A stretch of 43,098 bases of DNA from a virus (taxonomy: Duplodnaviria > Heunggongvirae > Uroviricota > Caudoviricetes), in the IMG/VR virus record IMGVR_UViG_2541047775_000007. One strand, 5' to 3'. Position 1 is the first letter of the stretch, and each line of letters begins with the position of its first letter. Made by a program: the position numbers and the translations under genes. Below the pieces are notes generated by a model. The model saw only the letters and a program-made list of their open reading frames with translations, was not told where the DNA came from and ran no database searches. This document shows, piece by piece, positions 8,906-31,134 of the stretch.

Positions 8906-8942
8906 ATTTACATTGCACTCCTCTTGTGCCATAGTAATCGGG

Positions 8943-9018: not shown

Positions 9019-9176
9019 ATGCGTATAGCACAGTCATGCCAGAATTATGGTGGGCTGAATGGGGGTCCGAAAGGACGCCGGTACCACTTAGGCCGGTAAG
9101 ACCAACTCCGTTCAGTTCACCACCATCTGATTGGTCTCAGCGGTGGTGATGTAATTCGCTAAGTGGAGACGCCATC

Positions 9177-11277: not shown

Positions 11278-11299
11278 AAACAAGGCCGCGAAAGCGGCC
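11274..11299 (-). terminator. intrinsic terminator (aggccgc-gaaa-gcggcct) ending the minus-strand late operon
   Basis: 7-bp GC stem; T-run on the minus strand; separates convergent transcription units. Confidence 0.6.
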
Positions 11300-11300
11300 T

Positions 11301-11312
11301 GTGACATGTCAC
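11301..11312. other. perfect 12-bp palindrome GTGACATGTCAC (motif C copy 1)
   Basis: Overlaps the stop codon of 11309..11605 and abuts the terminator; same palindrome at 31123-31134 and near-identical at 28858-28869. Confidence 0.6.
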
Positions 11313-11605
11313 GTCCCTTTTCTGAATGATAGCCATTCGAAAAATGATGACATTCCACCGCAGACAATAGCAAAGATGATCCCACCAAAGAAGAGAAGGC
11401 CAGCCTGCCACCACTCCCACCGCCATACATCCACAGCGCCAACCATACCAACAATCGCTCCAACAAATGGAATATAGCTCACGATGAAAGCAATGGGGGC
11501 TGCAATTATCCAGTGCAATCCCCACCATGATTCAAGCCCAGCCATAATTGCTGCCAACTGAAAAAGACCAACGACGATATAAACAATGAATCCTATAGCT
11601 TGCAT
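11309..11605 (-). CDS. small integral membrane protein (98 aa, about 3 TM helices, Trp-rich)
   Basis: RBS aggtga before ATG; highly hydrophobic; last gene of the late operon. Confidence 0.6.
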   Translation of the reverse strand: MQAIGFIVYIVVGLFQLAAIMAGLESWWGLHWIIAAPIAFIVSYIPFVGAIVGMVGAVDVWRWEWWQAGLLFFGGIIFAIVCGGMSSFFEWLSFRKGT

Positions 11606-11617
11606 GTAGTCACCTAT

Positions 11618-11791
11618 TTACCCAGTAAAAATAAGAGGCCTCCCCTCAATAAGGCTTGCAACAAGAACTACTCCCTGCACAACAAAGATGAACCAGCAAA
11701 TAGCTTGAGTCTGAGGGTTAAGAAAATATTTGTAGCGGTCAATAAATAACAATACACCAGAAATTATCACACTCAAAATAATTAAAAACAC
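11618..11791 (-). CDS. candidate small membrane protein (about 57 aa), below the ORF-track size cut-off
   Basis: GTG start 4 nt after RBS aaggaag, directly after the stop of 11801..14275; two hydrophobic segments. Confidence 0.35.
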   Translation of the reverse strand: MFLIILSVIISGVLLFIDRYKYFLNPQTQAICWFIFVVQGVVLVASLIEGRPLIFTG

Positions 11792-11800
11792 AACACTTCC

Positions 11801-14275
11801 TTATTGCGGAGTGACATCCTGAGGTCGCCACCAGTATGTCTGGTTAAACTCTTTCTTCGAACGTTGCTCCATTTTACGCAAATAGCCTGGTGAAAAATAC
11901 TCCTGCATCTGGTTAAAGATCATGTGATCGAGAGCCGCCTTCAAGTACCAGAGATTCGCACCAGGCATCAAACCTTTCCCCAGCTTCACCAGATCACCAC
12001 CAGTCTGCTCACTCTTCCCTTCCACAGCATTTAACGGTATGCCCTGAGCAATCTTCACTACGTCATCAACTAGACCAGCTACCGGGCCAAGCATCGACGC
12101 CAGCGCGCCGCTTCCGTACCTAGTGTGATCTGACAATAAAAAGTCACCGTAAAGGCCAAGACCACCACCTTTCAGTAGAGCACCAAGCCAGAATTTTGCG
12201 GCATCTTCTCCTGTCATCTCTCGAGGATTACGACCAGACGCAAGGTCGTTAAGTTGTTGCGACAAAGCGCCAAGAATGGTCGTACTGGCAATAAACGTCG
12301 CAATATATGCCGCACGCCCACCAGCAGACGGCATACCCATAGCGCGTGACCAGTGACGCATAACAACCGAGATAGGGAACGATTTAAACAGGAAAACACT
12401 TCTCGTTAATTCACCTTTCCATGTTCCACGCTGAATACCAGAACCGGTTATCAGTTGCTCACGTGCTCCCGGTGTAATAACAGCCATATCAACTTCTTCA
12501 GTTACGGCACCGAGCAGTTTACGCATTGCCTCAAATTTCACGCGTTCAGGCTCACCAAGATGTTTAACTGCTGAATCAGGGATACGCATAATGCTTTCCG
12601 GTGTCAGCATCGTATTATTACCGTTCCCCCAGTCCTCCTGTTGCGCCAACTTCCATACGCTCCAGTCTGTGTCAGTAATCCCTTTGCTTTTCAGGATACG
12701 AAAATCAGAGTCATCGAGGCGACGAAGGTCTGGTGTCCGTGACACTACTTCTCCCAGGCTTCCCATCATGGTTACGCCATAGGCGCGCTTGTGCGCATCT
12801 GACCATGCTGTAAGCCCACTGGCACGCATTACCGCCGTTGCAGCCCAACGAGACACAGACGGCCCCATATTATCCATCGCCCAGCGGTTAACGCTGCCAA
12901 GTAGAGATTCCATCGCCAGACCAGCGCGGCGCGCCCGCGCAAGTTCTGTACGGTTCGTTGGGTCCATAGCTTCAAGCTGGTTGCGGAATAACTGGTTCAT
13001 TGGAAGGTTGGTAACCTTCGCAGACAGATACATGGTTCCAAGATCAGAGAACGATGACAGCAACGCGGATCCGAGTCTGCTGGCAACCAGCCAGTTGCGG
13101 ATATTGTCAGACCATCGCGCGATGTGCGGATTCGCTACAGGCTGTGTCTTTCCGGAAATAAAGTTGTACAGATTCTCTGTGTTGTTCGCCAGCCGCTCGA
13201 CTTTACCGGTTTTACTCGGGTTAGCTGTTGCCGTTTCTGCCTTCACCTGATCAAGAAGAGAGCGGAAAACATGATCGGGGTTTGGACCATATGTTTCCAC
13301 CAGTGCAATATCTTTACTGATACCTTCCAGGTGACCGACCATGATTTCCCATAGAGAGCGATCGCCATAAAGTTGCTGATATTGCAGATAGGAATCTGCA
13401 TCTTTGAAATGTATCTGTCGTGATGCATTACCACGGTTAGCACGTGCGCCGGAAATTCGCATTCCGGTATCAGTAAGCTTATTCAGCCCACCAGTAGCGA
13501 TCGTGTTATAAGCCTCTCCAAGAAATGCAGACAACTCGGCATCGTTCATCAGTTGTCCATCGGCTCGGGTATAATATTTGCGATCCAGCTTACCTATAAC
13601 ATCGCTAACCCATTTATCTTTTGATACCGCCCCAACCTTTTCCATAGAATGATGTTGAGGGATCCCCCAGTTTTCGAGATAGCCAATGTCCCCACCAGCA
13701 TCATTAAACCGGCGGCGCAGTAGCTCTGTCACTTCTCTCCACGCCTTAGCACCTTTTCTTGCTTTAGCATTGCCAGTATTTTGCCCCAGCATTTCATATA
13801 CCAGGTCACGTACGCCCGCTTCATCTTCAAACAGACCAAAAAAGCGAGGATCAACTGCTTCGAATGCCTCCTGCAATTGACTCAATGCATAATCACGGGT
13901 GGCTTTTGTTCTGGATTCAACAGAGAGGAAATTCGATTTACCGTCTGCATTAAAAGCAATAGTACGGTTAAGAGCGCCAAGTTTCCCATCAGCCCCTTGA
14001 TAGCTATTGATAAATTTATCCAATCTCTGACGTGCGGCTATAGTGAGGGCCACACGACGTTTCTTTAATGCCGCTTCTCGCTGTAATTCTTCAGATGCCA
14101 ATTGTGCTGCACGATACAGCCGCTCTGATTCGGAAAGTTGTCGCCACGACATCGGGTCATCACGAGCAATGGAGCGCATATTTCGATAAATGCGGTCTTC
14201 AATGTTCTGTATTTCTCGCGCCGTTAACGTGCGCTGCGCCGCCTGCTGGACCGCTTGTATACATTCCTGTCTCAT
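11801..14275 (-). CDS. large internal virion / ejection protein (824 aa)
   Basis: Position at the end of a T7-like structural gene order; size and composition fit internal core proteins. Confidence 0.55.
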   Translation of the reverse strand: MRQECIQAVQQAAQRTLTAREIQNIEDRIYRNMRSIARDDPMSWRQLSESERLYRAAQLASEELQREAALKKRRVALTIAARQRLDKFINSYQGADGKLGALNRTIAFNADGKSNFLSVESRTKATRDYALSQLQEAFEAVDPRFFGLFEDEAGVRDLVYEMLGQNTGNAKARKGAKAWREVTELLRRRFNDAGGDIGYLENWGIPQHHSMEKVGAVSKDKWVSDVIGKLDRKYYTRADGQLMNDAELSAFLGEAYNTIATGGLNKLTDTGMRISGARANRGNASRQIHFKDADSYLQYQQLYGDRSLWEIMVGHLEGISKDIALVETYGPNPDHVFRSLLDQVKAETATANPSKTGKVERLANNTENLYNFISGKTQPVANPHIARWSDNIRNWLVASRLGSALLSSFSDLGTMYLSAKVTNLPMNQLFRNQLEAMDPTNRTELARARRAGLAMESLLGSVNRWAMDNMGPSVSRWAATAVMRASGLTAWSDAHKRAYGVTMMGSLGEVVSRTPDLRRLDDSDFRILKSKGITDTDWSVWKLAQQEDWGNGNNTMLTPESIMRIPDSAVKHLGEPERVKFEAMRKLLGAVTEEVDMAVITPGAREQLITGSGIQRGTWKGELTRSVFLFKSFPISVVMRHWSRAMGMPSAGGRAAYIATFIASTTILGALSQQLNDLASGRNPREMTGEDAAKFWLGALLKGGGLGLYGDFLLSDHTRYGSGALASMLGPVAGLVDDVVKIAQGIPLNAVEGKSEQTGGDLVKLGKGLMPGANLWYLKAALDHMIFNQMQEYFSPGYLRKMEQRSKKEFNQTYWWRPQDVTPQ

Positions 14276-14280
14276 TTAAT

Positions 14281-16083
14281 TTAACCTCTCAAGAAACACG
14301 CCACAGCAACATCAAACAGGCTGGAATCCTGTATTGCCTGCTCACTTTCCCTGTTCGCTTCATCCAGTACTTCACGCGCACTGCGCGATTGTGGATTACC
14401 ATCATCATCCAGCACGGTGATTATCATGTCAGGTGATTCAAGCAGCGAGTCTTCAGCTATACGCAGATCAATATCTCCTGCCGGATCTGCCATCATTTTT
14501 TGTTCTGTCTGTTGCAATATCTTACCGGGCTCAAAAGGAGCTACTTCTTCTGGCGTCCTGACCTCTGCTGTTTTATAGAATGAAACAGCCTGAGCATTAA
14601 GTTCACTTTCTGCCTGCTGTCGTCGTGCCAGTTCTGCTCGAGCTTCAAAAAACTGACCTCCAGGCTCGTGCGGCGCCAACGCGTTACGAGAAAATTCCAG
14701 GCGTTCTTGTGCCTGCCGGATTCGTTGGTCAATATCGCGAAGTCTGGCCTGTTTATCTGATCGAGCACGAGATAAAGCCTTACCGCTACCGGTTGGCTCT
14801 TCTGCAAGAATTTGTGCGCGCTGTTCAGTGAGATTTTCAATAATTCGTTGGCTATTAGCGATTTCAGACTGGTAAACCTTTCTATCGCCACGCGACAAAA
14901 GCTGCGCGGCCTGTTCTTCAAGCAACCGATTTTCTATAGCGCGCGCCGTTACTCCATCATCTACAGATGACAGAGCCTCATTAACTGCCTGAGACAGCAG
15001 ACTCTTGCGACCAGGAATTTCACTGAAAGATGCAGACTCAACAATGCTGGCAACGTCTACAGGTCTCCCCTGGCTAACATCAGACATGGCTTTTCGCAGA
15101 GCCTGAATGTGCGAATTACGCGAAAGCACGTTGATCGGAACGCCGGGAGCAATATCAATTTCAGCATGATGAGCGGCATTCGCCGCCAGTGCAGCATCAA
15201 TATCAACTGGTGAAAAATTTGGTGCGCTTGTAGACTCGCCGCGAGAGTTAATAAATCTGCCGACACCACCAAACGCCACCCCAAGAACAGCATCAATAGC
15301 AATTGCCTGTCGATCCAACACATCATACTGGTTAGCCATTTCGCTATAGCCACCATCACGAAGCGTTTTTGCAGTAAGCCCACGCTGTGCCATACCGAAC
15401 GCAATATTTGTACCTGCGGCATAGGCAATATCTGGCGTTGCACGTACTGCTGTTGCTGCGGCGCGTCGCACTGAACTCTCACCCGTCCGCGCAAGCTGAG
15501 CCGCCACACCTTCCGCCAGCGCACCACCAGCACGTAACCCGAGGCTCATAGGGATCAGTGTTCCGGCACCAGCAGTAATACCCTGCACTAATCCCGCTTC
15601 CTGCGCCGTCCTGAAATCAACACCCTGTGCTGTCAGCCGTTCAAACTCAGAAAAACCCTGTAGCGAAGTTACCGCCGCAGCACCTCCGACCGGACCACCG
15701 AGCGTTGTACCGATAACAGCCTGCCCGCCCATATCGAACAACCCATAAAGAACCTGCCCGGCGGTTCCGGTTGTCGCGGCATCAGGCGTCAGCCGCTTAA
15801 CCTGCTGCTCTGCTAGTTTTCTCTGCTCGGCAATGTATGAAACTGAAGTGTCATTGAGCGAGGTGTTTTCGTTAACAAACTGAGCAATCGGGGATACGAT
15901 TTTATCCATCCCTGCCCAGAGCAACTGATCTGGCTTTGCCACCAGCCCGGAGTACAAACCAGACAATGCCGCTCCTACAGCATTGTCGAAAAAACCAACA
16001 TCGCTGTTAAAGCCAGCTGGATTTGATGCTGCTTCGTCAAGCTGCTGATTCTGGTTTACTGGATTAAGGCCAAAGTAACTCAT
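14281..16083 (-). CDS. internal virion / ejection protein (600 aa), Gly/Ala-rich
   Basis: Within the run of internal-core genes; start overlaps upstream stop. Confidence 0.5.
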   Translation of the reverse strand: MSYFGLNPVNQNQQLDEAASNPAGFNSDVGFFDNAVGAALSGLYSGLVAKPDQLLWAGMDKIVSPIAQFVNENTSLNDTSVSYIAEQRKLAEQQVKRLTPDAATTGTAGQVLYGLFDMGGQAVIGTTLGGPVGGAAAVTSLQGFSEFERLTAQGVDFRTAQEAGLVQGITAGAGTLIPMSLGLRAGGALAEGVAAQLARTGESSVRRAAATAVRATPDIAYAAGTNIAFGMAQRGLTAKTLRDGGYSEMANQYDVLDRQAIAIDAVLGVAFGGVGRFINSRGESTSAPNFSPVDIDAALAANAAHHAEIDIAPGVPINVLSRNSHIQALRKAMSDVSQGRPVDVASIVESASFSEIPGRKSLLSQAVNEALSSVDDGVTARAIENRLLEEQAAQLLSRGDRKVYQSEIANSQRIIENLTEQRAQILAEEPTGSGKALSRARSDKQARLRDIDQRIRQAQERLEFSRNALAPHEPGGQFFEARAELARRQQAESELNAQAVSFYKTAEVRTPEEVAPFEPGKILQQTEQKMMADPAGDIDLRIAEDSLLESPDMIITVLDDDGNPQSRSAREVLDEANRESEQAIQDSSLFDVAVACFLRG

Positions 16084-18593
16084 TGCGGAATATCTCCGGA
16101 GAATCTCTGACGCTTCTGTGTCAGATCAAGAACAACGGGAGAACCATCATCTTTTAGCAGATAACCAGTACCAAGTTTCACCAGGTACTGACTATCGCCG
16201 TAACTTTGCAAACCATACTGACCATGCGGTGTTTTTATCCCTGTGCCAACAACTTGTTCATTCCAAGCCTGATTAACCTGCTTATCGAATTGCTCTGCAG
16301 ACATTCCCCACGGCAAAAGAACATTCCCCATTCCGTTATAGTCATGCACGCCACCTGTAGCTACGTTAACAGCCTGTTTCCAGATATCATTGTCAATTTC
16401 GCCTGATACCACGCCTTTTTTCGCCATCACACCAGCGTAATAGTCCTTTGCGATCTCGTATGCCATTGATGCCCCCTGAGCATCACCAGCAAATGCATCC
16501 TTCACCATGTCAGAAAACTCAAGGCGGAGATCAGCATCTTTAGGCATCGGAATACCTTTCGCGTCATCAGTACCTTTACGAGCCGCCGCGCCAGCAAGAA
16601 TTGTCTGCGCAGCGGTTTCAGGAGACACGGAAACATCCGGATTAAACCAGTTTTTTTCTGCCAAAATACCACCTGGCTTATCCATCAGTATCCCGGCAAC
16701 GGCAGCAGATGGAGCGTTGGCACTGATCTGCTGTAGTGCTGACATATACACCTGCCCACCACCAGTGCTCTGCCTGATGGTATCGAGATATGCTGCCTGT
16801 TGGGAAACGGGCGCATCACGAAAGAAAACACCGATCTGATTGGCCTCGTCTTTGGAAAAGAACGTCAGTGGAGTGCCATATGACTTAGCAAGGTCACTGA
16901 CCTGAGCAGCACGCAAGGCAACGCTCTGTCCAAAGTTATCCTTATTGCTCATGTCGATAGGCTTTGCCTGTCCGGCGGCAAGAGAGAACTGTACAGGATC
17001 AGCCTGTCGCTGCTTTATCACCTGACTTGCAGCCGAAACAACGTTGTCATAAAGAGCGGCTCGTGCCGCATAACCCTCCCCTGTCTCACCAGTATCCGGG
17101 CGTAATTGCTCAACATATGCTGTAATGCTGCTTGTCGGCATGTTGCGGAAAGAGCCTATATACTGTCCGGCGATTTGCGTATTTCTGAACTCGGTATATC
17201 GCAGGTTTCCTTCTCTTACTCCATAAGCTGCAATAAAATCAGCCTCACCAGGTGGGTTAGGAAATTCAACGCCACGCATATACGCAGCTGTCGCATCGCG
17301 AACCTGGCTGTCAATCATCGTTTTATATTCAGCCTGCTGCTGCCGACGCAGTTGATCCGCCTGTCGCATAAAACTTGCCTGCGCCTCAGGAGATGCCGCA
17401 TCGAATGCTGCATTACCGGTATAGCGTTTGGTGTTGGTTGGAATTGTTGATAAACCAAGTGCTGCACTGACACCAGCAGTTAACTGCTGATCACTGTATG
17501 GCTGGCTACCGTTCTCATGATGGATAATGGCTGCACAAAGCGCCTTCAGGGTATCAGGATTAGATGCATCGAGAGGCTCATCAGCAGAAACGCCAAGTTG
17601 TTCGCACACTGCTTTGATATACGACATAGTGTCATTTTTATCAGTAGGCGGTGCCCAGCGATTAATTATCTCGCTGACGGTATCAATACCCTGCCTCTGA
17701 TACGACATCAGGTTCCGCCCTAATGCACGAATCCCGTGTTCAGGTGTTTCGAATTTAGCAAATCGACCATCATCACCGGTCTGGCCTACCCACGGATTAG
17801 TTTTGCTGTATTCGAGATTTCCTGGGTTATTGTTGCGTATGCCACGGGCACGCTCGGAAGAGTCACTATCTGCTACAGCACGGCGAGCTCCAGCAGCAGT
17901 ATCACTTAACTCGCCATTACTTTGGATGAATGCGGTCGCATTGTTTGCCGACCACTGGGACAATGCAGCATCAGCAACCTTCTCTTTAAACTCGATTTTC
18001 TTGGCCTGGATTTGCTCGTCACTCCAGCCATGTGCAATGCCGTAATCCTCAATTTGCTGGAAAGTTTGCTTATTAGCCAATACGTATGCGGCGTTGTCGC
18101 CATACAATGCTGCGGCATTTTTACCATTGTTCAGCAGCGTAGCCTGAAACTGGCCTTCTTCGTAGGCATTTATTTGCCCTATCTCGTGCCGCCCTGCCTG
18201 CGTAGTGAACTGAATGCGCTGCTGCTGCGCCTGCTGCATGAAAGCATTACGAGCCTGTTCATCCGGCAGCGACATAGCCAGTTGTTCGACCTGAGCATCA
18301 AACTGCTGCGTATACTCCTGACCTTTTCCAATAGCATTTTTCCCTTTCAGGTTAAGCAATCCTGTTTCAGGATTATTCAGCAGATCACTGCTTATCTGAC
18401 TGAGGTTAAGAGATGCCTCCTGAGCCAGAGCGATATTGGCACGCTGTTTTGCCTGACCAAAAACATCAATTGCCTCTGTCCCTGCCCGAACAAAAGCATC
18501 ACCAATACCTGGCTGAGAAAACGTCTGCAAGCCTGCTGACTGAACTCCACGGCTCTGAACCTGACGGCCGGATACTGTTGGTACGACTGGCAT
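16080..18593 (-). CDS. large internal virion protein (about 838 aa) with conserved RNNNPGN-containing central domain
   Basis: Preferred start ATG at 18593 (RBS ggagga, overlaps upstream stop); ORF-track extension to 18668 overlaps the preceding gene. Confidence 0.55.
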   Translation of the reverse strand: MPVVPTVSGRQVQSRGVQSAGLQTFSQPGIGDAFVRAGTEAIDVFGQAKQRANIALAQEASLNLSQISSDLLNNPETGLLNLKGKNAIGKGQEYTQQFDAQVEQLAMSLPDEQARNAFMQQAQQQRIQFTTQAGRHEIGQINAYEEGQFQATLLNNGKNAAALYGDNAAYVLANKQTFQQIEDYGIAHGWSDEQIQAKKIEFKEKVADAALSQWSANNATAFIQSNGELSDTAAGARRAVADSDSSERARGIRNNNPGNLEYSKTNPWVGQTGDDGRFAKFETPEHGIRALGRNLMSYQRQGIDTVSEIINRWAPPTDKNDTMSYIKAVCEQLGVSADEPLDASNPDTLKALCAAIIHHENGSQPYSDQQLTAGVSAALGLSTIPTNTKRYTGNAAFDAASPEAQASFMRQADQLRRQQQAEYKTMIDSQVRDATAAYMRGVEFPNPPGEADFIAAYGVREGNLRYTEFRNTQIAGQYIGSFRNMPTSSITAYVEQLRPDTGETGEGYAARAALYDNVVSAASQVIKQRQADPVQFSLAAGQAKPIDMSNKDNFGQSVALRAAQVSDLAKSYGTPLTFFSKDEANQIGVFFRDAPVSQQAAYLDTIRQSTGGGQVYMSALQQISANAPSAAVAGILMDKPGGILAEKNWFNPDVSVSPETAAQTILAGAAARKGTDDAKGIPMPKDADLRLEFSDMVKDAFAGDAQGASMAYEIAKDYYAGVMAKKGVVSGEIDNDIWKQAVNVATGGVHDYNGMGNVLLPWGMSAEQFDKQVNQAWNEQVVGTGIKTPHGQYGLQSYGDSQYLVKLGTGYLLKDDGSPVVLDLTQKRQRFSGDIPQ

Positions 18594-19138
18594 TATAATC
18601 CTCCGGGTAATCTGGTTCCTGCTGCTGCCCCGATTGGCGCAGGGGTGCTTTGAGTAAACGGACTCCACGTCCCACCAAACATCTGGTACGCACCGTATGC
18701 CTTCAGAGGCGCAGTGAGCAATGTTGTTGCTGCTCCCACATTCCCCTGTTTACGGGCTGAACTGGCTTCTGCTTTATAGTTGGCAGCCTGAACCTGATAA
18801 CCGTAAGCCTCGCGTTGCGCGTTATTCACCGTCGTCAGAGAATCAAGAGCGCCAAACTGGGCAGTGTCGCCAAATATATCCAGCGCGTTACCTGTAGATA
18901 AATCAGCGCCGGTAGCCCCCATTGTCGCCGCCTGTGTACCAAGCCGCTGTCGGGTCTCTCTGCGTCGTTGCTCAGCTTCAGCGTTACCTCTGTTTATTGC
19001 ATCATTTGCCTGAGCTGTGGCTATATCTGCGTTCGCTTCTGCAACCTTCGAGGCATACTTTCCCTGTTGGTACTGGGTGTATGCCTGAATGCCACTCATG
19101 GCGAGCATTGCGCCACCAGCAATAACCGGATCGCACAT
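18593..19138 (-). CDS. internal virion protein (181 aa), T7 gp14-like position
   Basis: Gene order; Ala/Gly/Gln-rich. Confidence 0.45.
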   Translation of the reverse strand: MCDPVIAGGAMLAMSGIQAYTQYQQGKYASKVAEANADIATAQANDAINRGNAEAEQRRRETRQRLGTQAATMGATGADLSTGNALDIFGDTAQFGALDSLTTVNNAQREAYGYQVQAANYKAEASSARKQGNVGAATTLLTAPLKAYGAYQMFGGTWSPFTQSTPAPIGAAAGTRLPGGL

Positions 19139-23007: not shown

Positions 23008-23051
23008 TCCTGCAATAAAGGGGCCGAAGCCCCTTGTCTGATCCGCGAGGC

Positions 23052-23396
23052 TTACACGCCCAGTTCTTTACGCTTATCTGCGATCTTCTCGCGGAGCGTT
23101 TCAGCTTTGGCGTTATGGTGTGGCTTCTCGTTAAAGAGCAATTCGTACTCTTCACGGAGCTTATCCAGTTCACCATCATCTGACACATCGTTGATGATTT
23201 TGGTGCTGGTTGCTGCCATTGACACCTTTACTGCAACTTTTGCTTTTGCCTGTCTGGCTGCATCGTTAACAGGTTCCAGTGCGCTACCAGGCTCACCTTC
23301 GTATTCGATTTCTGCCCCCTCCGGCCACAGTGTGTTATGGATATGAGAGAGGCGCAGAACGCGGTATCTTGGTTTCTCACCTGACATCGATATCAC
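23052..23396 (-). CDS. hypothetical head protein (114 aa)
   Basis: ORF in late operon between capsid-associated genes. Confidence 0.45.
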   Translation of the reverse strand: MISMSGEKPRYRVLRLSHIHNTLWPEGAEIEYEGEPGSALEPVNDAARQAKAKVAVKVSMAATSTKIINDVSDDGELDKLREEYELLFNEKPHHNAKAETLREKIADKRKELGV

Positions 23397-23397
23397 C

Positions 23398-23835
23398 TTA
23401 ACCAGTTACTTTTGAGCGGATCGGGTACGGCGTATTGGCATCAACATCCAGACTGATACCCGCAGTGAATTTGCCGGCCGTTAGTGGGCCAGTTGCGACG
23501 GAGTAGTTAACACGCAGATATCGCTGAACACCGGCTGGCACCTTTGCAGAAACAACTCGCTTACCTGCTGTCAGGGTGGCCTTTGCCAACGCACCACTAT
23601 CATAAATAGTGGTCCAAGAGCTGTTATTCTCACTCGTCTGCAACTGGATGTTTACAGTTGCCTCACCACTTGCCGTGGCGGCTTCGTTAACCAGCCCCCA
23701 AAACTCAAGCGGGTAACCCACACCGATATCGCGACGGTTTCCATCAATTGGACCGAGATCGATTACGTCAGTAGAAGCCGCGGTATCAGTTACCGCCTGT
23801 GCTTCGGAGAACATCAACAGTTTGTCGGTGATCAT
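23398..23835 (-). CDS. putative capsid decoration/accessory protein (145 aa)
   Basis: Immediately downstream of the major capsid gene; RBS ggagaaag. Confidence 0.4.
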   Translation of the reverse strand: MITDKLLMFSEAQAVTDTAASTDVIDLGPIDGNRRDIGVGYPLEFWGLVNEAATASGEATVNIQLQTSENNSSWTTIYDSGALAKATLTAGKRVVSAKVPAGVQRYLRVNYSVATGPLTAGKFTAGISLDVDANTPYPIRSKVTG

Positions 23836-23886
23836 CTTCTTTCTCCATTAGTGGGTCTGTTACGACCCACAGGTTAATAACAGGCG

Positions 23887-24879
23887 TTACACCACGCGGG
23901 CTTCTGTTTCCAGAAGCGCATCAGTTTCACGGATTGGTACACCACGGAATGACGTCCACCACTCGCCTTCAGTCTCTTTTACGCTAATCGCCAGAGATGT
24001 TTTCTCCAGAGACTGCAGATCAAGAGCCTGGCCTACAGTGCGGTTCATGTAGAACACCGGGCGACCCATGCCACGGTTTGGAATGCGATGCAGTGCTTTA
24101 ACCATCAACTTCGCAATATTTGCGGCAGAGGAAGGTTCTGAAAGATTGCTGACATCGATGTTTGCAATGCGAACAACATAACGCCAGTCACGCAGAGCAA
24201 GTCCGTTATCCCATTTGTAATGGGTGCGATAGCCTTCGTACTTGCCGCCATTAGCATCTTCCAGTGTCACCTGGCCTTTATCTTCCATCTGGATGCCAGC
24301 CTTCTGCCCTTTCGGGAAGATGCCATGCACGGTGTTTTCGCCCCACACTACTAACCAGATTGAGGTGTTATCTGTACCCGTGCCACCAGCATCAATGATG
24401 TTCTGAGCATTACCCGCAGACAGGCTGGAATAGCGGGAGGACAGTCCCATAAACTGCTGAGGGTTAACGCTGGAATCACCATAAAACAGTGTCTGCGCCA
24501 TCTGCTGATTCATCGCTTCAATAAATGCGCGGTCTTCAGACAGGCGGAATTCGGCGGTATTACCGTTCAGATCAGCCAGTGACTTATCGACTTCAGCATA
24601 GGTTTCCAGCATTCCAACGGAATCGGTGACCTGCACTGTGGTTGATTTGCTTGGCTGTACGCCATAGTTCAGCAAACGCCAGGTGGCTGAAGGTAAACCA
24701 GAACGAATGGTGGTTCGGTGTCCGGTAGGAAGGTTCCCTTCGACAAAAGGCATATCCTGAAGGATCGGGTTAGTTTGACCGAGAAGCTCGATAATCTTAT
24801 CGACTTTCCCGTTTGGATCGACGCGCTTACCCCAGTCAGCCAGCGTTAGCGCAGTTAAGCCTTTAACAGCCATTGTCAT
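23887..24879 (-). CDS. major capsid protein (330 aa)
   Basis: Size and position after the scaffold gene; resembles about 330-aa podovirus (epsilon15-like) coat proteins. Confidence 0.7.
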   Translation of the reverse strand: MTMAVKGLTALTLADWGKRVDPNGKVDKIIELLGQTNPILQDMPFVEGNLPTGHRTTIRSGLPSATWRLLNYGVQPSKSTTVQVTDSVGMLETYAEVDKSLADLNGNTAEFRLSEDRAFIEAMNQQMAQTLFYGDSSVNPQQFMGLSSRYSSLSAGNAQNIIDAGGTGTDNTSIWLVVWGENTVHGIFPKGQKAGIQMEDKGQVTLEDANGGKYEGYRTHYKWDNGLALRDWRYVVRIANIDVSNLSEPSSAANIAKLMVKALHRIPNRGMGRPVFYMNRTVGQALDLQSLEKTSLAISVKETEGEWWTSFRGVPIRETDALLETEARVV

Positions 24880-24887
24880 TTCCTCTC

Positions 24888-25589
24888 TTATTTGCCATAG
24901 AGCACTTCGGCCGCACTACGCTGGCCTTCATTACCACCGGTGACCATGCCATCTTCAGACATCGCCTTTCCGATTTTCACGAACGTTTTGACCAGATCAG
25001 GGTGATTACCCAGTCCGGTGGTGTTCAGATATTCTTTGAGTTCAGGTGTCCCGAACTGGTCAAGCGCACGCTGTGCGGCGCTAAGGTTAGAAATCAACTT
25101 GTCGCCACCGATTTCTTTGTCAGCTTTTACATCCGCAGCCCACTGCTCGGTTGTTTTCTGCCAGGCTTCTGCCTGGCGCTGCTGAACACCTGCCAGAATC
25201 TTCGGATAAGCATCAACCAGCTTTTGCGCTTGCTCGTTGGTCAGGTTTAGTTCTCGCGCCACCGGCTCGAATTCCTTCAACGCTTCTGTATCCAGCTCTA
25301 CGCCTTCGGCAGCCTGAAACTCGTACTTCTCAGGCGCACCCTCTGGTTTATCGCCGCCCTTTTTTTCATCCTGCTTATCGTTTTCAGGCTTTTTGTCATC
25401 AGCAGGTTTATCGCCATCAGCAACAGGTTGTGGCTTATCACCTTCCGGTTGTGATGGATCACCAACTGGAGCAGGGTTATCACCTGCAGGCGCTGACGGT
25501 TCTGACGCAGCCGGAGCTGCTCCACCATCGACTGGTTGCTCATTGCAAAGACGGCGATACAGCAAACGCTCAAATAAATTCATGATCAC
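24888..25589 (-). CDS. scaffolding protein (acidic, low-complexity Pro/Asp/Lys-rich N-half)
   Basis: Position between portal and capsid; composition typical of scaffold proteins. Confidence 0.6.
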   Translation of the reverse strand: MIMNLFERLLYRRLCNEQPVDGGAAPAASEPSAPAGDNPAPVGDPSQPEGDKPQPVADGDKPADDKKPENDKQDEKKGGDKPEGAPEKYEFQAAEGVELDTEALKEFEPVARELNLTNEQAQKLVDAYPKILAGVQQRQAEAWQKTTEQWAADVKADKEIGGDKLISNLSAAQRALDQFGTPELKEYLNTTGLGNHPDLVKTFVKIGKAMSEDGMVTGGNEGQRSAAEVLYGK

Positions 25590-25882
25590 TCCTGTTCACT
25601 GGCCTCTTTGGCCATCTTCAAATACTGTTCAGGGCAATGCGCCATAACGCGCTGAAACAGTTCCAGCGCCAGATTGCGTTGCCCCTCATTAAATGCCATT
25701 GCCATAGAGTCCATCGGTGAGATAGCGGAAAACACACGGCCTTTCTCCAGCACCGACCAGACAACGCGACGCCCCTGTTCACTGCTCATGACAAAGCGAA
25801 TGTCATCAATTTCACGCTGTGCCATGTCACATTGCTTACGGGCGTTTTCTTCTTTCAGTTGATCATCTTCGTAATCTGTCAT
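25586..25882 (-). CDS. hypothetical head-assembly protein (98 aa)
   Basis: ORF overlapping portal stop and scaffold start. Confidence 0.45.
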   Translation of the reverse strand: MTDYEDDQLKEENARKQCDMAQREIDDIRFVMSSEQGRRVVWSVLEKGRVFSAISPMDSMAMAFNEGQRNLALELFQRVMAHCPEQYLKMAKEASEQE

Positions 25883-27558
25883 TGTGATTGCCCACCCTGA
25901 CCACTAACTGCATTCGCCATAGCTGACAAAACACTCGGATCCGAAGTTTTAGCTTCGCTTAGCGTCTTGGCACCCTGTGCCGCCGCCATCCCCATCGCCA
26001 TCATTTGTTGCTGCTGTTGTTGCTGTGCCCGTTGCTGGCGAGCCTGCTCAACCTGTTCCTGCGGAACAATGACGGTTGGAGACACTCCAGACATATCAGC
26101 GAATGCATCGATCGCCTGATCAACGTTGAGTTTGTCGAGAGCTTCTGGTTTCGCTTGCGCAAGTTGACCAATGAAGTTAACCGTGGATGCCAGACTGGAC
26201 AGGCCGATAGACTTCTGCGCCTGAGCCATGACGGAAATGTATTCGACCTTCAGGGGCATGCCTTCCATCGCGTCAGGCGGTGGCGGCAACATGTTTTTAC
26301 GCACCATCATCGAGAAAGCGCGGTCAATGAGAGGATTAAGACATTCGTCGTTCAGACGCTCCAGAACCGGCCCCAACATCAGAAGTTTTTCTTCTTTCAT
26401 TTCGATCACCGCTTCAACAGGCATCGAGCGGGTATTGATGTTCTGCAACATCATGAACAGATCGACAAAGTAGGCGCTGTTAATGATTTGACGAGTGTCC
26501 TGAATGTCTGCCACCAAATCTGCTGTACTGGGGTTAACCAGATAAGCAGGCCTGAAGCCATCCTGACCAGTAATCTGATCGATATACGTGATGTCGCCAG
26601 GAAGAAGGGAGGCGCGCTGATTCTTGAGGGAAGTCGGAGCAACCATCGGAGGATTGGTGGCTTTATCAATCAACTGCGACTTGCGCTTCTGGAGAAGCTG
26701 CAATGCCTTAACAGGTCCAAGCGCCAGCATACCCGGGCATGATGATCCATAAACATCTTCGCCGTTAACTTCCCAGCGCGGAGCCATAATTGGAAACTCA
26801 TCGAATCCGGACTCACGCAACAACTTGTCGTTATCGCCACCAACCTCGTAATAAACCGATTTGAATGGCTTGTTCTTGCTATCCAGCTTCGATGTATCGC
26901 GGTCAATGTTCGGGTAAACCGAATGCATCACTTCAATCCACTTCTCGTAGGTGCCGCTTTCCCACATGCTTTTTACGGATTCGCTGACGTTATTTAGTCC
27001 GAATTCCTGAACAAGCTGACGAACAGTCATAGAGAACTTGCGAAAACAGGTGTCCACACTGCCACGAGGTGAGTTAGCCAGGTAGTAACTTCCTATCGGG
27101 AATGGCATTGTACGAATGATGTCCTCGTCATCCTCCAGCACCGCCATTGCACCGGTGCTGTATGTGCCGAGGCTTCCGTATAACTGCGGCAGCGACTGAT
27201 AGAGATTCGACTTATTGAACATATCGTTCATGCGGTTCTGCACTGCCTCAAGCCACAACTTAACAGGGCCATAATCCATCATTTCAGGATCTGGCGTAGC
27301 CAGGCGAAACCACGGACGCGCGGGGCTTGTGATGCCCGACATCATGCCGCTGGCGAGAGTGCGCGCCGCCATAGTCCCAGTCGAATCAATAATGCGTGTA
27401 TTGCGTCGATCGTTACGGTTGACCTCAGAAGTCAGAAAGCGGGAACCACGCGGGTTGATGTAATCACTCAACTCGCGCCAGTGCGGCTCGAACGACTGAC
27501 GCTCGCTTTCAAGTTGTGCGAACTGTTTGTTCAATCGCTCTTTAGTTGTTTCCGCCAT
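25879..27558 (-). CDS. portal protein (559 aa)
   Basis: Size, position after the terminase genes, Gln/Ala-rich C-terminus typical of podovirus portals; RBS ggag. Confidence 0.8.
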   Translation of the reverse strand: MAETTKERLNKQFAQLESERQSFEPHWRELSDYINPRGSRFLTSEVNRNDRRNTRIIDSTGTMAARTLASGMMSGITSPARPWFRLATPDPEMMDYGPVKLWLEAVQNRMNDMFNKSNLYQSLPQLYGSLGTYSTGAMAVLEDDEDIIRTMPFPIGSYYLANSPRGSVDTCFRKFSMTVRQLVQEFGLNNVSESVKSMWESGTYEKWIEVMHSVYPNIDRDTSKLDSKNKPFKSVYYEVGGDNDKLLRESGFDEFPIMAPRWEVNGEDVYGSSCPGMLALGPVKALQLLQKRKSQLIDKATNPPMVAPTSLKNQRASLLPGDITYIDQITGQDGFRPAYLVNPSTADLVADIQDTRQIINSAYFVDLFMMLQNINTRSMPVEAVIEMKEEKLLMLGPVLERLNDECLNPLIDRAFSMMVRKNMLPPPPDAMEGMPLKVEYISVMAQAQKSIGLSSLASTVNFIGQLAQAKPEALDKLNVDQAIDAFADMSGVSPTVIVPQEQVEQARQQRAQQQQQQQMMAMGMAAAQGAKTLSEAKTSDPSVLSAMANAVSGQGGQSQ

Positions 27559-27572
27559 TTCAATGACTCCGG

Positions 27573-27779
27573 TTACTGACCAAGCAGCGTTTTACCGCTG
27601 GTATTAGCGGTTGATGTGTCGCCCTGAGAACCGGTAAGCAGCGTAGAACTACGACCAGCAGCAACGCGACGGCGACGAGTTTCTTCGTCGCGGGCATCAA
27701 CAACGGCGGCATCCTGCTCCTGTGGTGCTGCCTGAACTTCTGGTGTTGCAGGCACTGATGGTGAGCTACCCATGCACAT
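27573..27779 (-). CDS. small hydrophilic protein (68 aa) upstream of portal
   Basis: RBS context ggagtcattgatATG is nearly identical to the portal RBS context ggagtcattgaaATG. Confidence 0.45.
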   Translation of the reverse strand: MCMGSSPSVPATPEVQAAPQEQDAAVVDARDEETRRRRVAAGRSSTLLTGSQGDTSTANTSGKTLLGQ

Positions 27780-27847
27780 ATCAATGACTCCGTACGCAAT
27801 TAAATTATTACCAATTTAACCACATATGATTTATTTATCGTAGATAG

Positions 27848-27884
27848 TTGACATTTAACGCACAAATTATTACCTTTAAGGTAA
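27848..27884 (+). promoter_or_regulatory. promoter-like TTGACA (27848-27853) with operator TTACCTTTAAGGTAA (27870-27884)
   Basis: Consensus -35 hexamer followed by a motif A palindrome, pointing toward the tRNA island. Confidence 0.5.
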
Positions 27885-28206
27885 CCAAAGAGTTCATTCC
27901 GGTTACTAACCTGACTGGCTTGTCGTTAAATTGAACAGGTGGAGTGAGCTTTTATTTTGAGCAGTACGGCGTATGGCACATGCGCCGATAGCGGTCTGGA
28001 TACGTTTAAGGGGCACCCTCCCTTGCTCGGGCAAACGAACCAGGTAGCCGGAATGTGCAAGTCGAGCGGTTTTATTCCGCGCACGGGGATTCACCATCCC
28101 GGCGATTCGGTGTGACGCCTCGGAAGAGACGAGGGTACAACGATGAGAGCATTTATGGAGCCGCGACAAAGTGTGGCGCCTTAACAGGCTAAGTGCTCTC
28201 AGCGTT

Positions 28207-28283
28207 GTGGCATTAGCTCAGTTGGACAGAGCAACCGCCTTCTAAGCGGTTGGTCGCAGGTTCGAATCCTGCATGCCACGCCA
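28207..28283 (+). tRNA. tRNA-Arg (anticodon TCT), phage-encoded
   Basis: Manual cloverleaf: acceptor gtggcat/atgccac, D-arm gctc...gagc, anticodon stem accgc/gcggt with loop CTTCTAA, T-arm gcagg-ttcgaat-cctgc, discriminator G plus encoded CCA. Confidence 0.85.
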
Positions 28284-28326
28284 GAATCACGCCTAAGGAC
28301 CGTGATGCCAGAAGTTCCAGGGGCTT

Positions 28327-28369
28327 GGCGGTGATGGTTTCCCTTGAATGACTATCACCGCCCTTTTTA
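28327..28369 (+). terminator. intrinsic terminator after the tRNA (ggcggtgat...atcaccgcc plus T5)
   Basis: 9-bp stem with large loop followed by CTTTTT. Confidence 0.55.
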
Positions 28370-28446
28370 CAGCAGGACGCCATTGCGATGACTTCATGCT
28401 GTAAACCAGTACAGCCACGGAAGGCATAACTCATTGCTTCCAGTTC

Positions 28447-28470
28447 GCCCGGTTCGCCGGGCATTTTTTT
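28447..28470 (+). terminator. hairpin plus T7 immediately upstream of the 28482 RBS (attenuator-like)
   Basis: gcccgg-ttcg-ccgggc followed by TTTTTTT, 11 bp before aaggtgag RBS. Confidence 0.5.
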
Positions 28471-28481
28471 AAGGTGAGATT

Positions 28482-28853
28482 ATGAACGACCAGCAAATCG
28501 AAAAAGAAATCGTTGAGAAAGGCAAAACTGCTCCGCGCGTTACGCCAGACCATATCGAAAGCATTATTGCTCAGGAGGCATATTTCACAGCAGAGGATGG
28601 TGCCTTTGGCAAAGCCATAAAAGCGAAACATACTGGCGGAGAGGTAAACTACCAGCCGCACGAATCACTTTCTCTGCTGACGTTCTGCGTCCTGGTGCTG
28701 CGCAACGGCTTCACCGTCACCGGAGAGAGCGCCTGTGCAAGCCCGGAAAACTTTGATGCAGAAATTGGTCGGAAGATTGCCCGGCAGAATGCTGTAAACA
28801 AAATCTGGATGCTTGAAGGTTACTTGCTGAAGCAGAAGTTAAGCGAGCAATAA
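28482..28853 (+). CDS. conserved phage protein, possibly Gp49-like family (123 aa)
   Basis: RBS aaggtgag; motif LRNGFTVTGESACASPENFDAEIGRKIARQNA recalled as the N4 gp49 / Sf6 gp66-like family (from memory, not verified). Confidence 0.5.
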   Translation: MNDQQIEKEIVEKGKTAPRVTPDHIESIIAQEAYFTAEDGAFGKAIKAKHTGGEVNYQPHESLSLLTFCVLVLRNGFTVTGESACASPENFDAEIGRKIARQNAVNKIWMLEGYLLKQKLSEQ

Positions 28854-28857
28854 CACC

Positions 28858-28869
28858 GTGACATGTCAT
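28858..28869. other. palindrome GTGACATGTCAT (motif C copy 2)
   Basis: Sits between the stop of 28482..28853 and the terminator at 28874-28901. Confidence 0.55.
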
Positions 28870-28873
28870 AAAC

Positions 28874-28901
28874 AGCCAGCCTATGAGCTGGCTTTGTTTT
28901 A
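28874..28901 (+). terminator. rho-independent terminator (agccagc-ctatg-gctggct plus TTGTTTT)
   Basis: 7-bp stem and T-run; convergent with terL. Confidence 0.7.
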
Positions 28902-28943
28902 TCCTCACCAGAGGATATCAATGACATTATCCCCACCAGCGGA

Positions 28944-30419
28944 TTAAGCATAGGGATCGTAATCTGTAATGGCCTTGCCTTGCTGGTTCTGCTGCCCGGG
29001 AAGTCGCAGGCGCTTTGACACCGGGAAAGCAAACGTCAGCAGTAGCGCATCGCCTTTACCAGGAGAACGCCCAAGACGCTCTTTGATATCTTCCTTCGGT
29101 TCGATAACGATTTTACCGTCCACACGAACTTTGTACTCTGCCGCCGACAGGTCGTCTGCAGTTTCCTGGTCATCCAGCATGCCGCCCAGCCTCAGCCATG
29201 TCTTACATGAGTTGAACATCTCCCCACGCTTGTTAAGCATCTGCGGGTCAGTGGACGCACCGCCGAACGGAACAAGTTGCCATGTACGCCCCCAGCCATC
29301 ACCGATTGACTTCAAACCGGTTCCGTAACCGAAGTCGATGAACACCGCGTCAGCCTGATACTGGTCTTCAAAGTCAGCGATACGCTTCGCCATTATCAGA
29401 TCGTCAGTGGTCTTGTTGCCAGTCCACAGCACCTTACTGTGCAGCCCCTGCCGCAGGTATATCACAGCGTCATCAACTCCGGAGTATGCCGGGTCAACGC
29501 CGATTATCACCGGAGCATGTGCAACCTGCGCAGCGGTTACCACCCGTTTCATTGCCTCATCAGTAAGACCGGTAGGGATAAACTGCAATTCAGATGCATC
29601 AGGGAATATGCCGCGCACACGGATTTTAACGAAGTCGCTGTCTTCCCCGTAGTCATCAACCCATTTCTGCAACTGCTGTTTGTTAGTGCCTTCCACCGTC
29701 CGGCTGTCAATCTGCGCAGTTTTCCAGCGGTGTTTGTATTTGCGGAAACATTCGCGAAAACGCCCGGTGTTACGTGTAGGGTTTCCGAACGCCACCCAGA
29801 TAATCTCAGTGTCTTCGTCCGTTAGCGCACCCTCGGCAACTTCCCACACCAGATCCGCAATGTTCGACGCTTCATCGAATACCACGATGATGCGTTTGCG
29901 CTCGTTGTGTAGTCCGGCGAATGCCTCAGTGTTGTGCTCAGACCAGGGGATTGCGTCAGCTCGCCACCGTTTGTCGTGCCCAGGATCATTGCTGTACATC
30001 GCGGTAGCGGTACAGGTAAACCAGTCTTTCGTGATAGCAAGGTTCGACCACTTGATAATTTCCGGCCAGGTCTTCGTTCGTAGCTGGTTGTCGGTGTTGG
30101 CGGTCACCACGACCTTACAATCCTCGCAAGTGGACATGCCCCAGTTGATCAGCATTGAGATGAATGCGGATTTACCAATACCGTGACCAGAAGCGCGTGC
30201 CAGCATAAGCGGCTGATAGCGCGTCTCTGGATTCTGCAGGTGATCACGTATCTCTCTGAACGCATCGGCCTGCCACTGACGTGGACCGGTGGCATGTGCC
30301 AGTTCAGTACCCTCTTCCCCCCACGGGAACGCATAGAGGGCATAGCCAAGCGGATCGTGAGTGAACCCTGCAATATCCTCGATTAACTGCTCTTCAGGAG
30401 ATAACGCTGTATCTGTCAC
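28944..30419 (-). CDS. terminase large subunit (491 aa)
   Basis: Walker A-like GHGIGKS, acidic nuclease-domain residues, position after terS. Confidence 0.85.
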   Translation of the reverse strand: MTDTALSPEEQLIEDIAGFTHDPLGYALYAFPWGEEGTELAHATGPRQWQADAFREIRDHLQNPETRYQPLMLARASGHGIGKSAFISMLINWGMSTCEDCKVVVTANTDNQLRTKTWPEIIKWSNLAITKDWFTCTATAMYSNDPGHDKRWRADAIPWSEHNTEAFAGLHNERKRIIVVFDEASNIADLVWEVAEGALTDEDTEIIWVAFGNPTRNTGRFRECFRKYKHRWKTAQIDSRTVEGTNKQQLQKWVDDYGEDSDFVKIRVRGIFPDASELQFIPTGLTDEAMKRVVTAAQVAHAPVIIGVDPAYSGVDDAVIYLRQGLHSKVLWTGNKTTDDLIMAKRIADFEDQYQADAVFIDFGYGTGLKSIGDGWGRTWQLVPFGGASTDPQMLNKRGEMFNSCKTWLRLGGMLDDQETADDLSAAEYKVRVDGKIVIEPKEDIKERLGRSPGKGDALLLTFAFPVSKRLRLPGQQNQQGKAITDYDPYA

Positions 30420-31012
30420 TGATTGCCATCCTGACGTTCTTTCAGTCTCTTCCTGGCTGCCGCTATGCGATCAGCAATTGTCACATTCACATTAACATCC
30501 AGGCGTTCTTTGAACGCGTTGACGTCGACGTGCTTACCAATCAGTTCGAGGTTCTTCACCTTGTCAGGCCATTTAATTTTTTTGAGGATTGTCTCTATCG
30601 AATCCTCGTCCATGTTCATGATGGTAGATGACAGATCAAAGCCACTAAGCGTAGTGCGCCAGATTTTCGGCCACTCGCGGATTGGCTTAAGGCTTCCATC
30701 GTCGTTGAGGATATCAATCACGTCCATCTGGTCGATCTCCACCAGGCGCATGAGAACGTAATCAGCACTGACGCGCATTCGTTTGTTGCGCTCCTCCATC
30801 AACTCGGCAATCCGTTTTTGAATGCGTTCATCGCGCATCATGACACTGGCTTTAACTGCCGCTGTATTTGGGGAGAATCCTGCGTTAATCGCAGCCTGAC
30901 TCTGGTTTTCAGGCGTTTTGATGTATGACTGGCAATAAGCCTCCTGCATTGCTGTGAGCGGCTTAAATTGCGTTGATTTGCGTTTATAGGTTTTAGGTTC
31001 AGCAGGCATCAT
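30416..31012 (-). CDS. terminase small subunit (about 198 aa; ORF-track start at 31090 probably over-extended)
   Basis: Overlaps terL start; basic N-terminus MMPAEPKTYKRK; motifs recalled from small terminase families. Confidence 0.6.
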   Translation of the reverse strand: MMPAEPKTYKRKSTQFKPLTAMQEAYCQSYIKTPENQSQAAINAGFSPNTAAVKASVMMRDERIQKRIAELMEERNKRMRVSADYVLMRLVEIDQMDVIDILNDDGSLKPIREWPKIWRTTLSGFDLSSTIMNMDEDSIETILKKIKWPDKVKNLELIGKHVDVNAFKERLDVNVNVTIADRIAAARKRLKERQDGNQ

Positions 31013-31054
31013 AACCACCCTGGTAATTGTTACCGTCGTGGTAATAGTAACATG

Positions 31055-31081
31055 CAAAATAAAGCCGCCATAGTTGGCGGC
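31055..31081 (-). terminator. intrinsic terminator (gccgcc-atagtt-ggcggc, T-run on minus strand) upstream of the terminase/late operon
   Basis: 6-bp GC stem followed on the minus strand by ctttatttt; lies between the zinc-finger gene and terS. Confidence 0.5.
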
Positions 31082-31122
31082 AGTATTCAAAACCCATCAA
31101 ATTCATCATGCATAATCTACTC

Positions 31123-31134
31123 GTGACATGTCAC
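31123..31134. other. perfect palindrome GTGACATGTCAC (motif C copy 3)
   Basis: Overlaps the stop codon of 31131..31469, 38 bp upstream of the terminator. Confidence 0.6.

Follow-up and report, generated by a model that had tools for sequence, protein, structure and literature searches.

The DNA analysed here, IMG/VR virus record IMGVR_UViG_2541047775_000007, is a stretch of 43,098 nucleotides (nt) that is called the window below. Judged by its sequence, the window is an epsilon15/phiV10-like podovirus prophage of the genus Uetakevirus: over the structural region it is 98% identical to phiv142-3, ZX5 and phiV10 and about 77% identical to epsilon15, with an integrase gene at its right end and insertion sequence (IS) elements at its left. 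The subject of this report is a 12-bp palindrome, GTGACATGTCAC, located at three junctions between transcription units, together with a gene on the minus strand, 31131..31469, whose 112-amino-acid (aa) product, putatively of the ribbon-helix-helix type, is probably the protein that binds it.

The minus strand carries three successive units. The first, the early rightward operon, runs from a cro-like gene through replication and accessory genes to its last open reading frame (ORF), the regulator gene 31131..31469, and is followed by copy a of the palindrome and a terminator. The second holds the small and large terminase genes, after which come a hairpin, copy b and a plus strand moron with a tRNA-Arg gene; copy b faces the end of the large-terminase gene (stop at 28944, minus strand). 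The third begins with the portal gene, continues with the structural genes and ends with a 98-aa ORF of unknown function (phrog_3075, 11309..11605, minus strand); copy c and a terminator come next, where the structural operon meets the convergent plus strand antirepressor operon.

Copies a (31123..31134) and c (11301..11312) match GTGACATGTCAC exactly, and copy b (28858..28869) reads GTGACATGTCAT, with one mismatch. These are the three copies listed by the sequence-only reading, an earlier note on this DNA, and their positions were confirmed. The recurrence of the palindrome is well above chance: with one mismatch allowed, the window contains 4 matches where dinucleotide shuffles predict 0.16, and 4 was reached in 0 of 100 shuffles. 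The fourth match, missed by the earlier note, is the one-mismatch copy GTGCCATGTCAC at 25819-25830, inside the gene 25586..25882 (minus strand). It is not conserved in relatives (one mismatch in phiV10, two in phiv142-3, no copy in epsilon15) and is probably a chance or decaying copy. Because of its location in a coding region and this lack of conservation, it was left out of the element.

The relation of the copies to stop codons is precise. The TGA of the regulator gene lies inside copy a and the TGA of the structural operon's last gene, ORF 11309..11605, inside copy c, exactly the two overlaps that had been described before. The moron gene 28482..28853 (plus strand; PF13876, N4 gp49 / Sf6 gp66 family) ends 4 nt ahead of copy b, which lies at its 3' end. 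Three intrinsic terminators accompany the copies, each with a G+C-rich hairpin and a T-tract, and all fold as predicted. The terminator of the structural operon (11283..11300, minus strand, read 11300->11283) directly abuts copy c, that of the moron (28874..28893, plus strand) begins 4 nt after copy b, and the one downstream of copy a (31064..31081, minus strand, read 31081->31064) precedes the small-terminase gene. Along the terminated transcript the gaps between palindrome and hairpin are thus 0, 4 and 41 nt for copies c, b and a; the phrase "immediately before a terminator" used in the sequence-only reading suits copies c and b and is loose for copy a.

Two explanations were rejected. The copies do not descend from a duplicated palindrome-plus-hairpin module, as the three hairpins differ in sequence and vary across phages while the 12-mer is constant. 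Nor is a sigma-70 promoter in the palindrome likely: the promoter-like match of 9/12 that begins at copy a (31134->31105) could be due to chance, and copies b and c have none. A mini-ORF of 8 codons, ATG CAT GAT GAA TTT GAT GGG TTT TGA, lies between copy a and its terminator (31085-31111, minus strand); it is kept in phiV10-type relatives and absent from epsilon15-type phages.

A different dyad, ATTACC-N5-GGTAAT, known from the annotated epsilon15 repressor (Rep) sites, is found at about 11 places in the window (7677, 8797, 8890, 9906, 27869, 31011, 31029, 34748, 34810, 37141, 37853 and 37915), in the immunity region and where the terminase, portal, antirepressor and tail-fibre units begin. 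As a prediction from these positions, the arrangement implies direct repressor control of each late unit. Given this layout, each palindrome stands at the 3' end of one of three consecutive units, and each late unit that follows has a repressor-controlled start of its own. Two Rep-operator-like sites (31029-31045 and 31011-31027) follow the terminator of copy a, before the probable start of the small-terminase gene. The longest ORF of that gene begins with a TTG at 31090 and would run through the terminator hairpin and both Rep-type operators; since relatives annotate a protein of 197-198 aa, the true start is probably the ATG near 31009. The palindrome itself was considered as an annotated Rep operator and rejected, as its sequence differs from the dyad and the Rep sites occur separately. 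A genome end or pac signal was rejected too, the start of the phiV10 record inside copy a simply following the stop codon of the last gene. The palindromes of N15 and ZF40 are distant from terminase genes.

A search of related prophages for the palindrome at module junctions, proposed with the original observation, found the three junction sites in all six whole genomes examined (phiV10, phiv142-3, epsilon15, SPN1S, Tyrion and the window). Copy a has orthologues in phiv142-3, epsilon15, Tyrion, SPN1S and a Klebsiella prophage, and in phiV10 it spans the ends of the record. At the orthologous junction copy b is an exact match in phiV10, epsilon15, SPN1S and Tyrion, and it takes the one-base variant form GTGACACGTCAC in phiv142-3 and the Klebsiella prophage, where all three copies are present. 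Copy c is exact in all of these relatives, the Klebsiella prophage included. Around the conserved sites the flanks are about 76-81% identical, and the hairpin sequences vary, with compensatory changes. Adjacent genes are exchanged as well. The moron beside copy b is absent from phiv142-3, and in relatives it is absent or replaced while the palindrome remains; three different small ORFs precede copy c among the relatives; Tyrion has an extra gene between copy b and the terminase gene, and there the hairpin is degenerate and the palindrome exact. In the Klebsiella prophage the T-tract of the copy c hairpin faces the antirepressor operon, which leaves the palindrome on the "wrong" side. Because flanks, hairpins and neighbouring genes all diverge around it, the selected element is the 12-mer at the junction and not a palindrome-terminator cassette.

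The palindrome sites sit where variable genes are swapped, and the genes next to copies b and c differ between relatives, as they might if the 12-mer were a recombination linker or scar at module boundaries, or a product of chance, with no binding function. The scar had been offered as one option in the earlier note. It is barely credible: 12 bases are too few to guide homologous recombination, genomes that are about 76% identical keep the sequence exactly while its flanks diverge, in unrelated phage types it is present only where one protein family is present, and, as shown below, its enrichment is specific to one spacer length.

The tie to terminators was measured over 128 non-identical sites. 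A terminator-like structure lies within 45 nt in 23 of them, 16 of these at 7 nt or less, against 3.1% for random positions, an adjacency about 6-fold above random and mostly at 0-7 nt. On these counts the association is real, though it is mainly a trait of the Uetakevirus junctions b and c. As a conserved unit, the palindrome-terminator module envisaged by the sequence-only reading did not survive: the 3' context varies across about 70 lineages, few sites have a terminator nearby, the T-tract is reversed in the Klebsiella relative, and in Tyrion the hairpin has decayed beside an exact palindrome. Terminators are frequent neighbours of the palindrome, not its defining partner.

In the genomes compared, the invariant partner of the palindrome is instead the regulator gene. 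The product of 31131..31469 belongs to the epsilon15 gp49 / N15 gp46 family (phrog_536, "transcriptional regulator"), is predicted to combine a ribbon-helix-helix with a Cys-rich, zinc-knuckle-like part, and has no sequence match in Pfam, NCBIfam or the PDB. Residues C40, R43, P49, Y50, E54, C79, C82, G95, C99 and T102 are invariant in the family. The structure model ends in the Cys-rich knuckle and a short helix (100-108), with no coiled coil. Homologues were found with tblastn in 154 of 50,697 phage records, spread over unrelated backbones and confined to phages of Enterobacterales, Vibrio and Aeromonas; hosts include Salmonella, Klebsiella, Yersinia, Pectobacterium, Vibrio and Aeromonas. 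At 50% identity it falls into 242 clusters among 1.84 billion representatives. Of 5,426 complete E. coli genomes, 637 have the gene-plus-site region, with the gene annotated only as "hypothetical protein". No late-gene regulator was found annotated in epsilon15/phiV10-like prophages, the ZX5 paper covers the repressor, antirepressor and integrase only, and the literature searched holds no description of the 12-mer or of MatP-like or matS-like phage systems.

Every homologue-bearing backbone examined carries GTGAC-NN-GTCAC. In unrelated phage types with a homologue the motif occurs 2-4 times per genome, where about 0.04 is expected, and usually overlaps or follows the homologue's stop codon. 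The Pectobacterium myovirus ZF40 has three exact copies of TGTGACATGTCACA, one 3 nt past the homologue's stop and two flanking the immunity region. N15 has three copies of GTGACTGGTCAC: one overlaps the stop of gp46, one lies inside repA and one upstream of the antirepressor locus. In a P2-like Yersinia phage an exact copy and a copy with one mismatch lie 33 bp from each other, ahead of an accessory gene. Of three copies in Vibrio phage K233, two lie exactly 19 nt ahead of start codons, including that of the small terminase. Two Aeromonas phages have three copies each of the variant GTGACCGGACAC, 13-16 nt ahead of start codons, and one of these precedes the homologue. Three placements recur. 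In three backbones a site directly precedes the small-terminase gene, in ZF40-like phages sites flank the immunity region, and in the Aeromonas phages a site lies in the leader of the homologue's own gene.

The same association was found in IMG/VR. A first scan for related loci returned only near-identical ones, in which the palindrome stands at the gene's stop in 78 of 80; the diverse set came from a second scan led by the N15 sequence. In that set, at 35-47% identity to N15 gp46 and with sites sought within 10 kb, 68 of 70 distinct homologue lineages have at least one exact GTGAC-NN-GTCAC. It overlaps the homologue's stop codon in about 45 of the 70 and lies within about 30 nt of it in others. 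In the reverse test, which started from 120 partial IMG/VR stretches with the 14-mer TGTGACATGTCACA, a homologue is encoded in 32, compared with 154 of the 50,697 phage records; further stretches belong to homologue-bearing phage types. Across the roughly 70 lineages the motif stays fused to the regulator gene at its 3' end. Downstream lies a terminator (at 10-41 nt) in some lineages, a LexA box and a umuD-like gene in others, and in others again, directly, the next gene's ribosome-binding site.

Two of these downstream contexts recur in recognisable form. In many lineages (L090, L204, L228, L233, L236, L239, L243, L247, L270, L283 and others) a small conserved hairpin, (A)CCTG-TTGCAG-CAGG(T), lies 8-12 nt after the motif and is followed by a GGAG element resembling a ribosome-binding site, after which the next gene starts. 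The gene past motif and hairpin begins MQNDIISDADIEKITGYKIPSKQC in L204 and L090 and may be DUF4224-like. In the Klebsiella prophage (L005, 20420-20470) and in one IMG/VR relative, L170, the regulator palindrome is followed by a consensus LexA box, TACTGT-N8-ACAGTA. The gene after the LexA box in the Klebsiella prophage is annotated as UmuD-like, an SOS-controlled insert between the regulator and terminase genes.

The spacing of the half-sites is strict. Ten homologue-bearing genomes contain 22 exact matches to GTGAC-N2-GTCAC, where 0.03-0.05 per genome is expected; in the same genomes spacers of 0, 1, 4, 5 and 6 gave no match and a spacer of 3 gave one. Lambda, which is without the family, has no spacer-2 site; it has two GTGAC-N1-GTCAC sites, at 9747 and 19010 (L213), in genes G and lom. 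Most genomes use a single central dinucleotide, which differs between clades: TG/CA in N15, AA/TT in the N15 relative L215, mostly AT in enterics and CG in Aeromonas phages, with AC and GC mixed in Vibrio K233. Where the centre is asymmetric, its orientation differs between orthologous sites. This behaviour fits a phage-specific, two-fold symmetric DNA binder and argues against both an RNA element and a host factor.

An RNA-level element would have GUGACAUGUCAC act in the 3' untranslated region, tuning the folding of the terminator hairpin or serving as a processing or stability signal, RNA processing being another option of the sequence-only reading. In several diverged genomes copies b and c do precede a terminator hairpin by 0-4 nt, and a mini-hairpin of 4-5 bp is predicted. 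It is marginal, however, with unremarkable z-scores. The Aeromonas variant breaks the pairing in one half-site with no compensating change, asymmetric centres do not keep their orientation relative to transcription, the variation falls in the "loop", and the arms conserve sequence and not pairing. Many sites are distant from any terminator, and there is no Rfam match at the palindromes (the window matches only tRNA-Arg, isrK, C4 antisense RNA and STnc490). Action at the RNA level, including RNA processing, is accordingly disfavoured and judged very improbable.

The second such explanation is that a host factor binds the sites, for instance MatP tolerating a 12-bp near-matS, which would make the link to the phage protein indirect. 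The half-sites are identical to those of matS and the hosts are restricted to taxa bearing MatP. Against this, the motif is fused to a phage gene's stop codon in about 45 lineages, and the central dinucleotide, as well as one half-site in the Aeromonas phages, tracks the phage clade rather than the host. The spacer is strictly 2 bp, compared with the 13-bp matS, GTGAC-RNY-GTCAC (PMC3603311, PMC6907758), and true matS motifs were reported absent from 500 enterobacterial prophages (PMC3603311). Binding by a host factor is therefore considered highly unlikely. One 13-bp sequence that fits the matS consensus, GTGACACCGTCAC, occurs in Vibrio phage K233 (L008, 19491).

The reading favoured here, and judged probable, is that the palindrome is the cognate DNA operator of the putative ribbon-helix-helix protein encoded by 31131..31469 and acts as a boundary element at unit junctions. 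Of the options listed in the sequence-only reading the protein-binding site is thus the one well supported by the comparative evidence, with the product of 31131..31469 as candidate binder; what changes is the tie, which is to the regulator gene rather than to the terminators. The two GTGAC half-sites, exactly 2 bp apart, would be recognised by a symmetric dimer or by two dimers. Because the stop codon of the regulator gene is fused to one of the operators, gene and site would be inherited together. The two other operators would serve the ends of the terminase unit and of the structural operon, against oppositely oriented genes. As the protein accumulates from the early rightward operon, it may occupy the three junctions, and when bound would form a roadblock beside the intrinsic terminators that lowers read-through between neighbouring or convergent units. 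The junctions so bounded would be those between the early operon and the terminase genes, between the terminase genes and the moron, and between the structural and antirepressor operons. The position of the sites at the 3' ends of three consecutive units, with Rep-operator-bearing starts in the late units that follow, supports a boundary role, as does the roughly 6-fold enrichment of terminators beside them. We infer the roadblock or boundary effect from the common denominator of the sites, their location at gene or operon boundaries within transcribed regions.

Several points weigh against this interpretation. The link between protein and site is drawn from co-occurrence and covariation, and the roadblock effect is purely inferred. 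Some homologue-bearing loci have no site at the gene's end. Elsewhere the sites lie directly 5' of ribosome-binding sites, in a cII-like gene, in repA of N15 and upstream of the Aeromonas homologue; since contexts vary this widely across lineages, the regulatory outcome may differ between them or be something else. A roadblock upstream of an already good terminator, as at copies a and c, also seems redundant.

The main alternative is Q-like antitermination, in which a protein bound to the palindrome makes a paused RNA polymerase resistant to termination and carries early transcription into the late genes; the pause site would be the adjacent terminator or a promoter with the GTGACA half as its -35 element. 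It is attractive for copy a. The regulator gene is the last of the early operon, directly upstream of the terminase genes, and is followed by a site and then a terminator, as in lambda Q-qut-tR'. No Q homologue is annotated in epsilon15/phiV10-like phages. GTGACA matches the -35 consensus at 5/6 positions, and a plausible -10 lies at 17-18 bp after copy a in the window, epsilon15, SPN1S and Tyrion. At copies b and c the distance from site to termination point is about 32-38 bp, which resembles the geometry between the Q-binding element and the paused polymerase. The fit to copy b is nevertheless poor: its terminator serves the reverse-strand moron, and read-through there would produce transcripts antisense to the terminase genes. 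Copies b and c lack the promoter-like arrangement, as do most other lineages, and the late units have their own Rep-controlled starts. The protein has no sequence similarity to Q families in Pfam, NCBIfam or the PDB, and ZF40 and N15 have a Q-like antiterminator besides the homologue. Taken as a whole, antitermination of this kind is unlikely.

A DNA-organising role like that of MatP and matS would have the protein bridge or mark dispersed sites and so fold, pair or protect the phage DNA, with transcription not the primary target. The identical half-sites fit it, as do the 2-4 dispersed sites per genome with one beside the gene, a distribution known from ParB/parS-type systems, and the restriction of homologues to phages of Enterobacterales, Vibrio and Aeromonas, the taxa that have MatP. 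The hhalign probability against E. coli MatP is 0.1%, however, the modelled protein lacks a coiled-coil tail, and many sites abut ribosome-binding sites, promoters or terminators, as fits a transcription factor. DNA organisation as the primary function is held to be quite unlikely. Rather unlikely, too, is the broader proposal that the operator, a "matS minus one base", belongs to an undescribed widespread phage module with a small ribbon-helix-helix/zinc protein, which might provide on-demand boundaries coupled to terminators, or a phage-private MatP-like bridging or marking of phage DNA that possibly interferes with how host MatP or MukBEF handles the prophage or the replicating genome.

Further features of the window lie apart from the palindromes. 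Rfam matches to isrK (8942-9018, plus strand) and to a P1-type C4 antisense RNA (9043-9127, plus strand) are located directly upstream of an AntA-family antirepressor gene (9177-9833), which suggests that the antirepressor operon is controlled by antisense RNA like immunity region I of P1, P7 and N15. A transposase gene of the IS5 family (DDE type) occupies the left edge (1-981). Between it and the lysis genes lies an IS200 copy (2310-2901), composed of a Y1 transposase gene (2310-2819) and the small RNA STnc490 (2778-2901). The tRNA-Arg(tct) gene (28207-28283, plus strand), found by ARAGORN and Rfam, is co-oriented with the moron; in the phiv142-3 record a tRNA-Arg is annotated on the opposite strand relative to the same alignment.

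On the comparative data the element is best filed as the putative operator of a family of uncharacterised regulators, probably of the ribbon-helix-helix type. It is unusual in the fusion of operator and stop codon, the adjacency to terminators at junctions, and the matS-like half-sites. With an orphan family paired to a precise 12-bp operator, gene control in epsilon15/phiV10-like prophages becomes open to direct test, and the interpretation, if true, explains the conserved "punctuation" at junctions where accessory genes are exchanged. The identity with the matS half-sites raises the question of cross-talk with, or avoidance of, the host's chromosome-organising system.

Among known systems, MatP/matS is the closest. 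It shares the GTGAC/GTCAC half-sites, a small number of dispersed sites and, as predicted for the phage protein, a ribbon-helix-helix binder, and the host range of the phage family matches the taxa bearing MatP. MatP-matS is also the top structural match to the model of the 112-aa protein, a resemblance at the level of the fold only. MatP has a C-terminal coiled coil for tetramerisation and the bridging of sites; the phage protein is modelled with neither a four-helix bundle nor a coiled coil. No sequence homology is detectable (11 aligned columns in the hhalign comparison with the family profile), the phage spacer is 2 bp and not 3, giving a 12-bp site outside the 13-bp definition of matS, and the phage sites lie at gene boundaries on phage DNA, while prophages are reported to avoid true matS. 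As there is no profile alignment and no coiled coil in the model, and true matS is reported absent from prophages, MatP/matS is taken as the closest analogue and not as the family. The half-site match could reflect a shared mode of ribbon recognition, or it could be a deliberately non-cross-reacting copy of the host site.

CopG/RepB, Arc, Mnt, MetJ and the antitoxins of the ParD/MazE type are ribbon-helix-helix regulators whose operators are palindromic. The phage family, which has no characterised member, adds a conserved Cys-rich C-terminal module (C40, C79, C82 and C99). Its operator mostly overlaps the stop codon of the regulator's own gene and not a promoter, and additional sites lie at operon ends and junctions. 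Lambda Q-qut-tR' has the same layout, with the regulator last in the early operon followed by a presumed DNA site, a terminator and the late genes, and there too gene and site travel together in mosaic genomes. The phage family differs from it in having no homology to Q, two further sites at the ends of late units, and Q-like proteins beside it in ZF40 and N15; qut sits in the late promoter, with a promoter-proximal pause, while the palindrome has no demonstrated overlapping promoter. The stoperators of mycobacteriophage L5 are short repressor sites in intergenic gaps along operons, thought to block the transcribing polymerase and not initiation. They are asymmetric and oriented, number about 30 per genome, and are bound by the immunity repressor, whereas the palindrome is symmetric, has three sites, and is proposed to be bound by a protein of the lytic operon.

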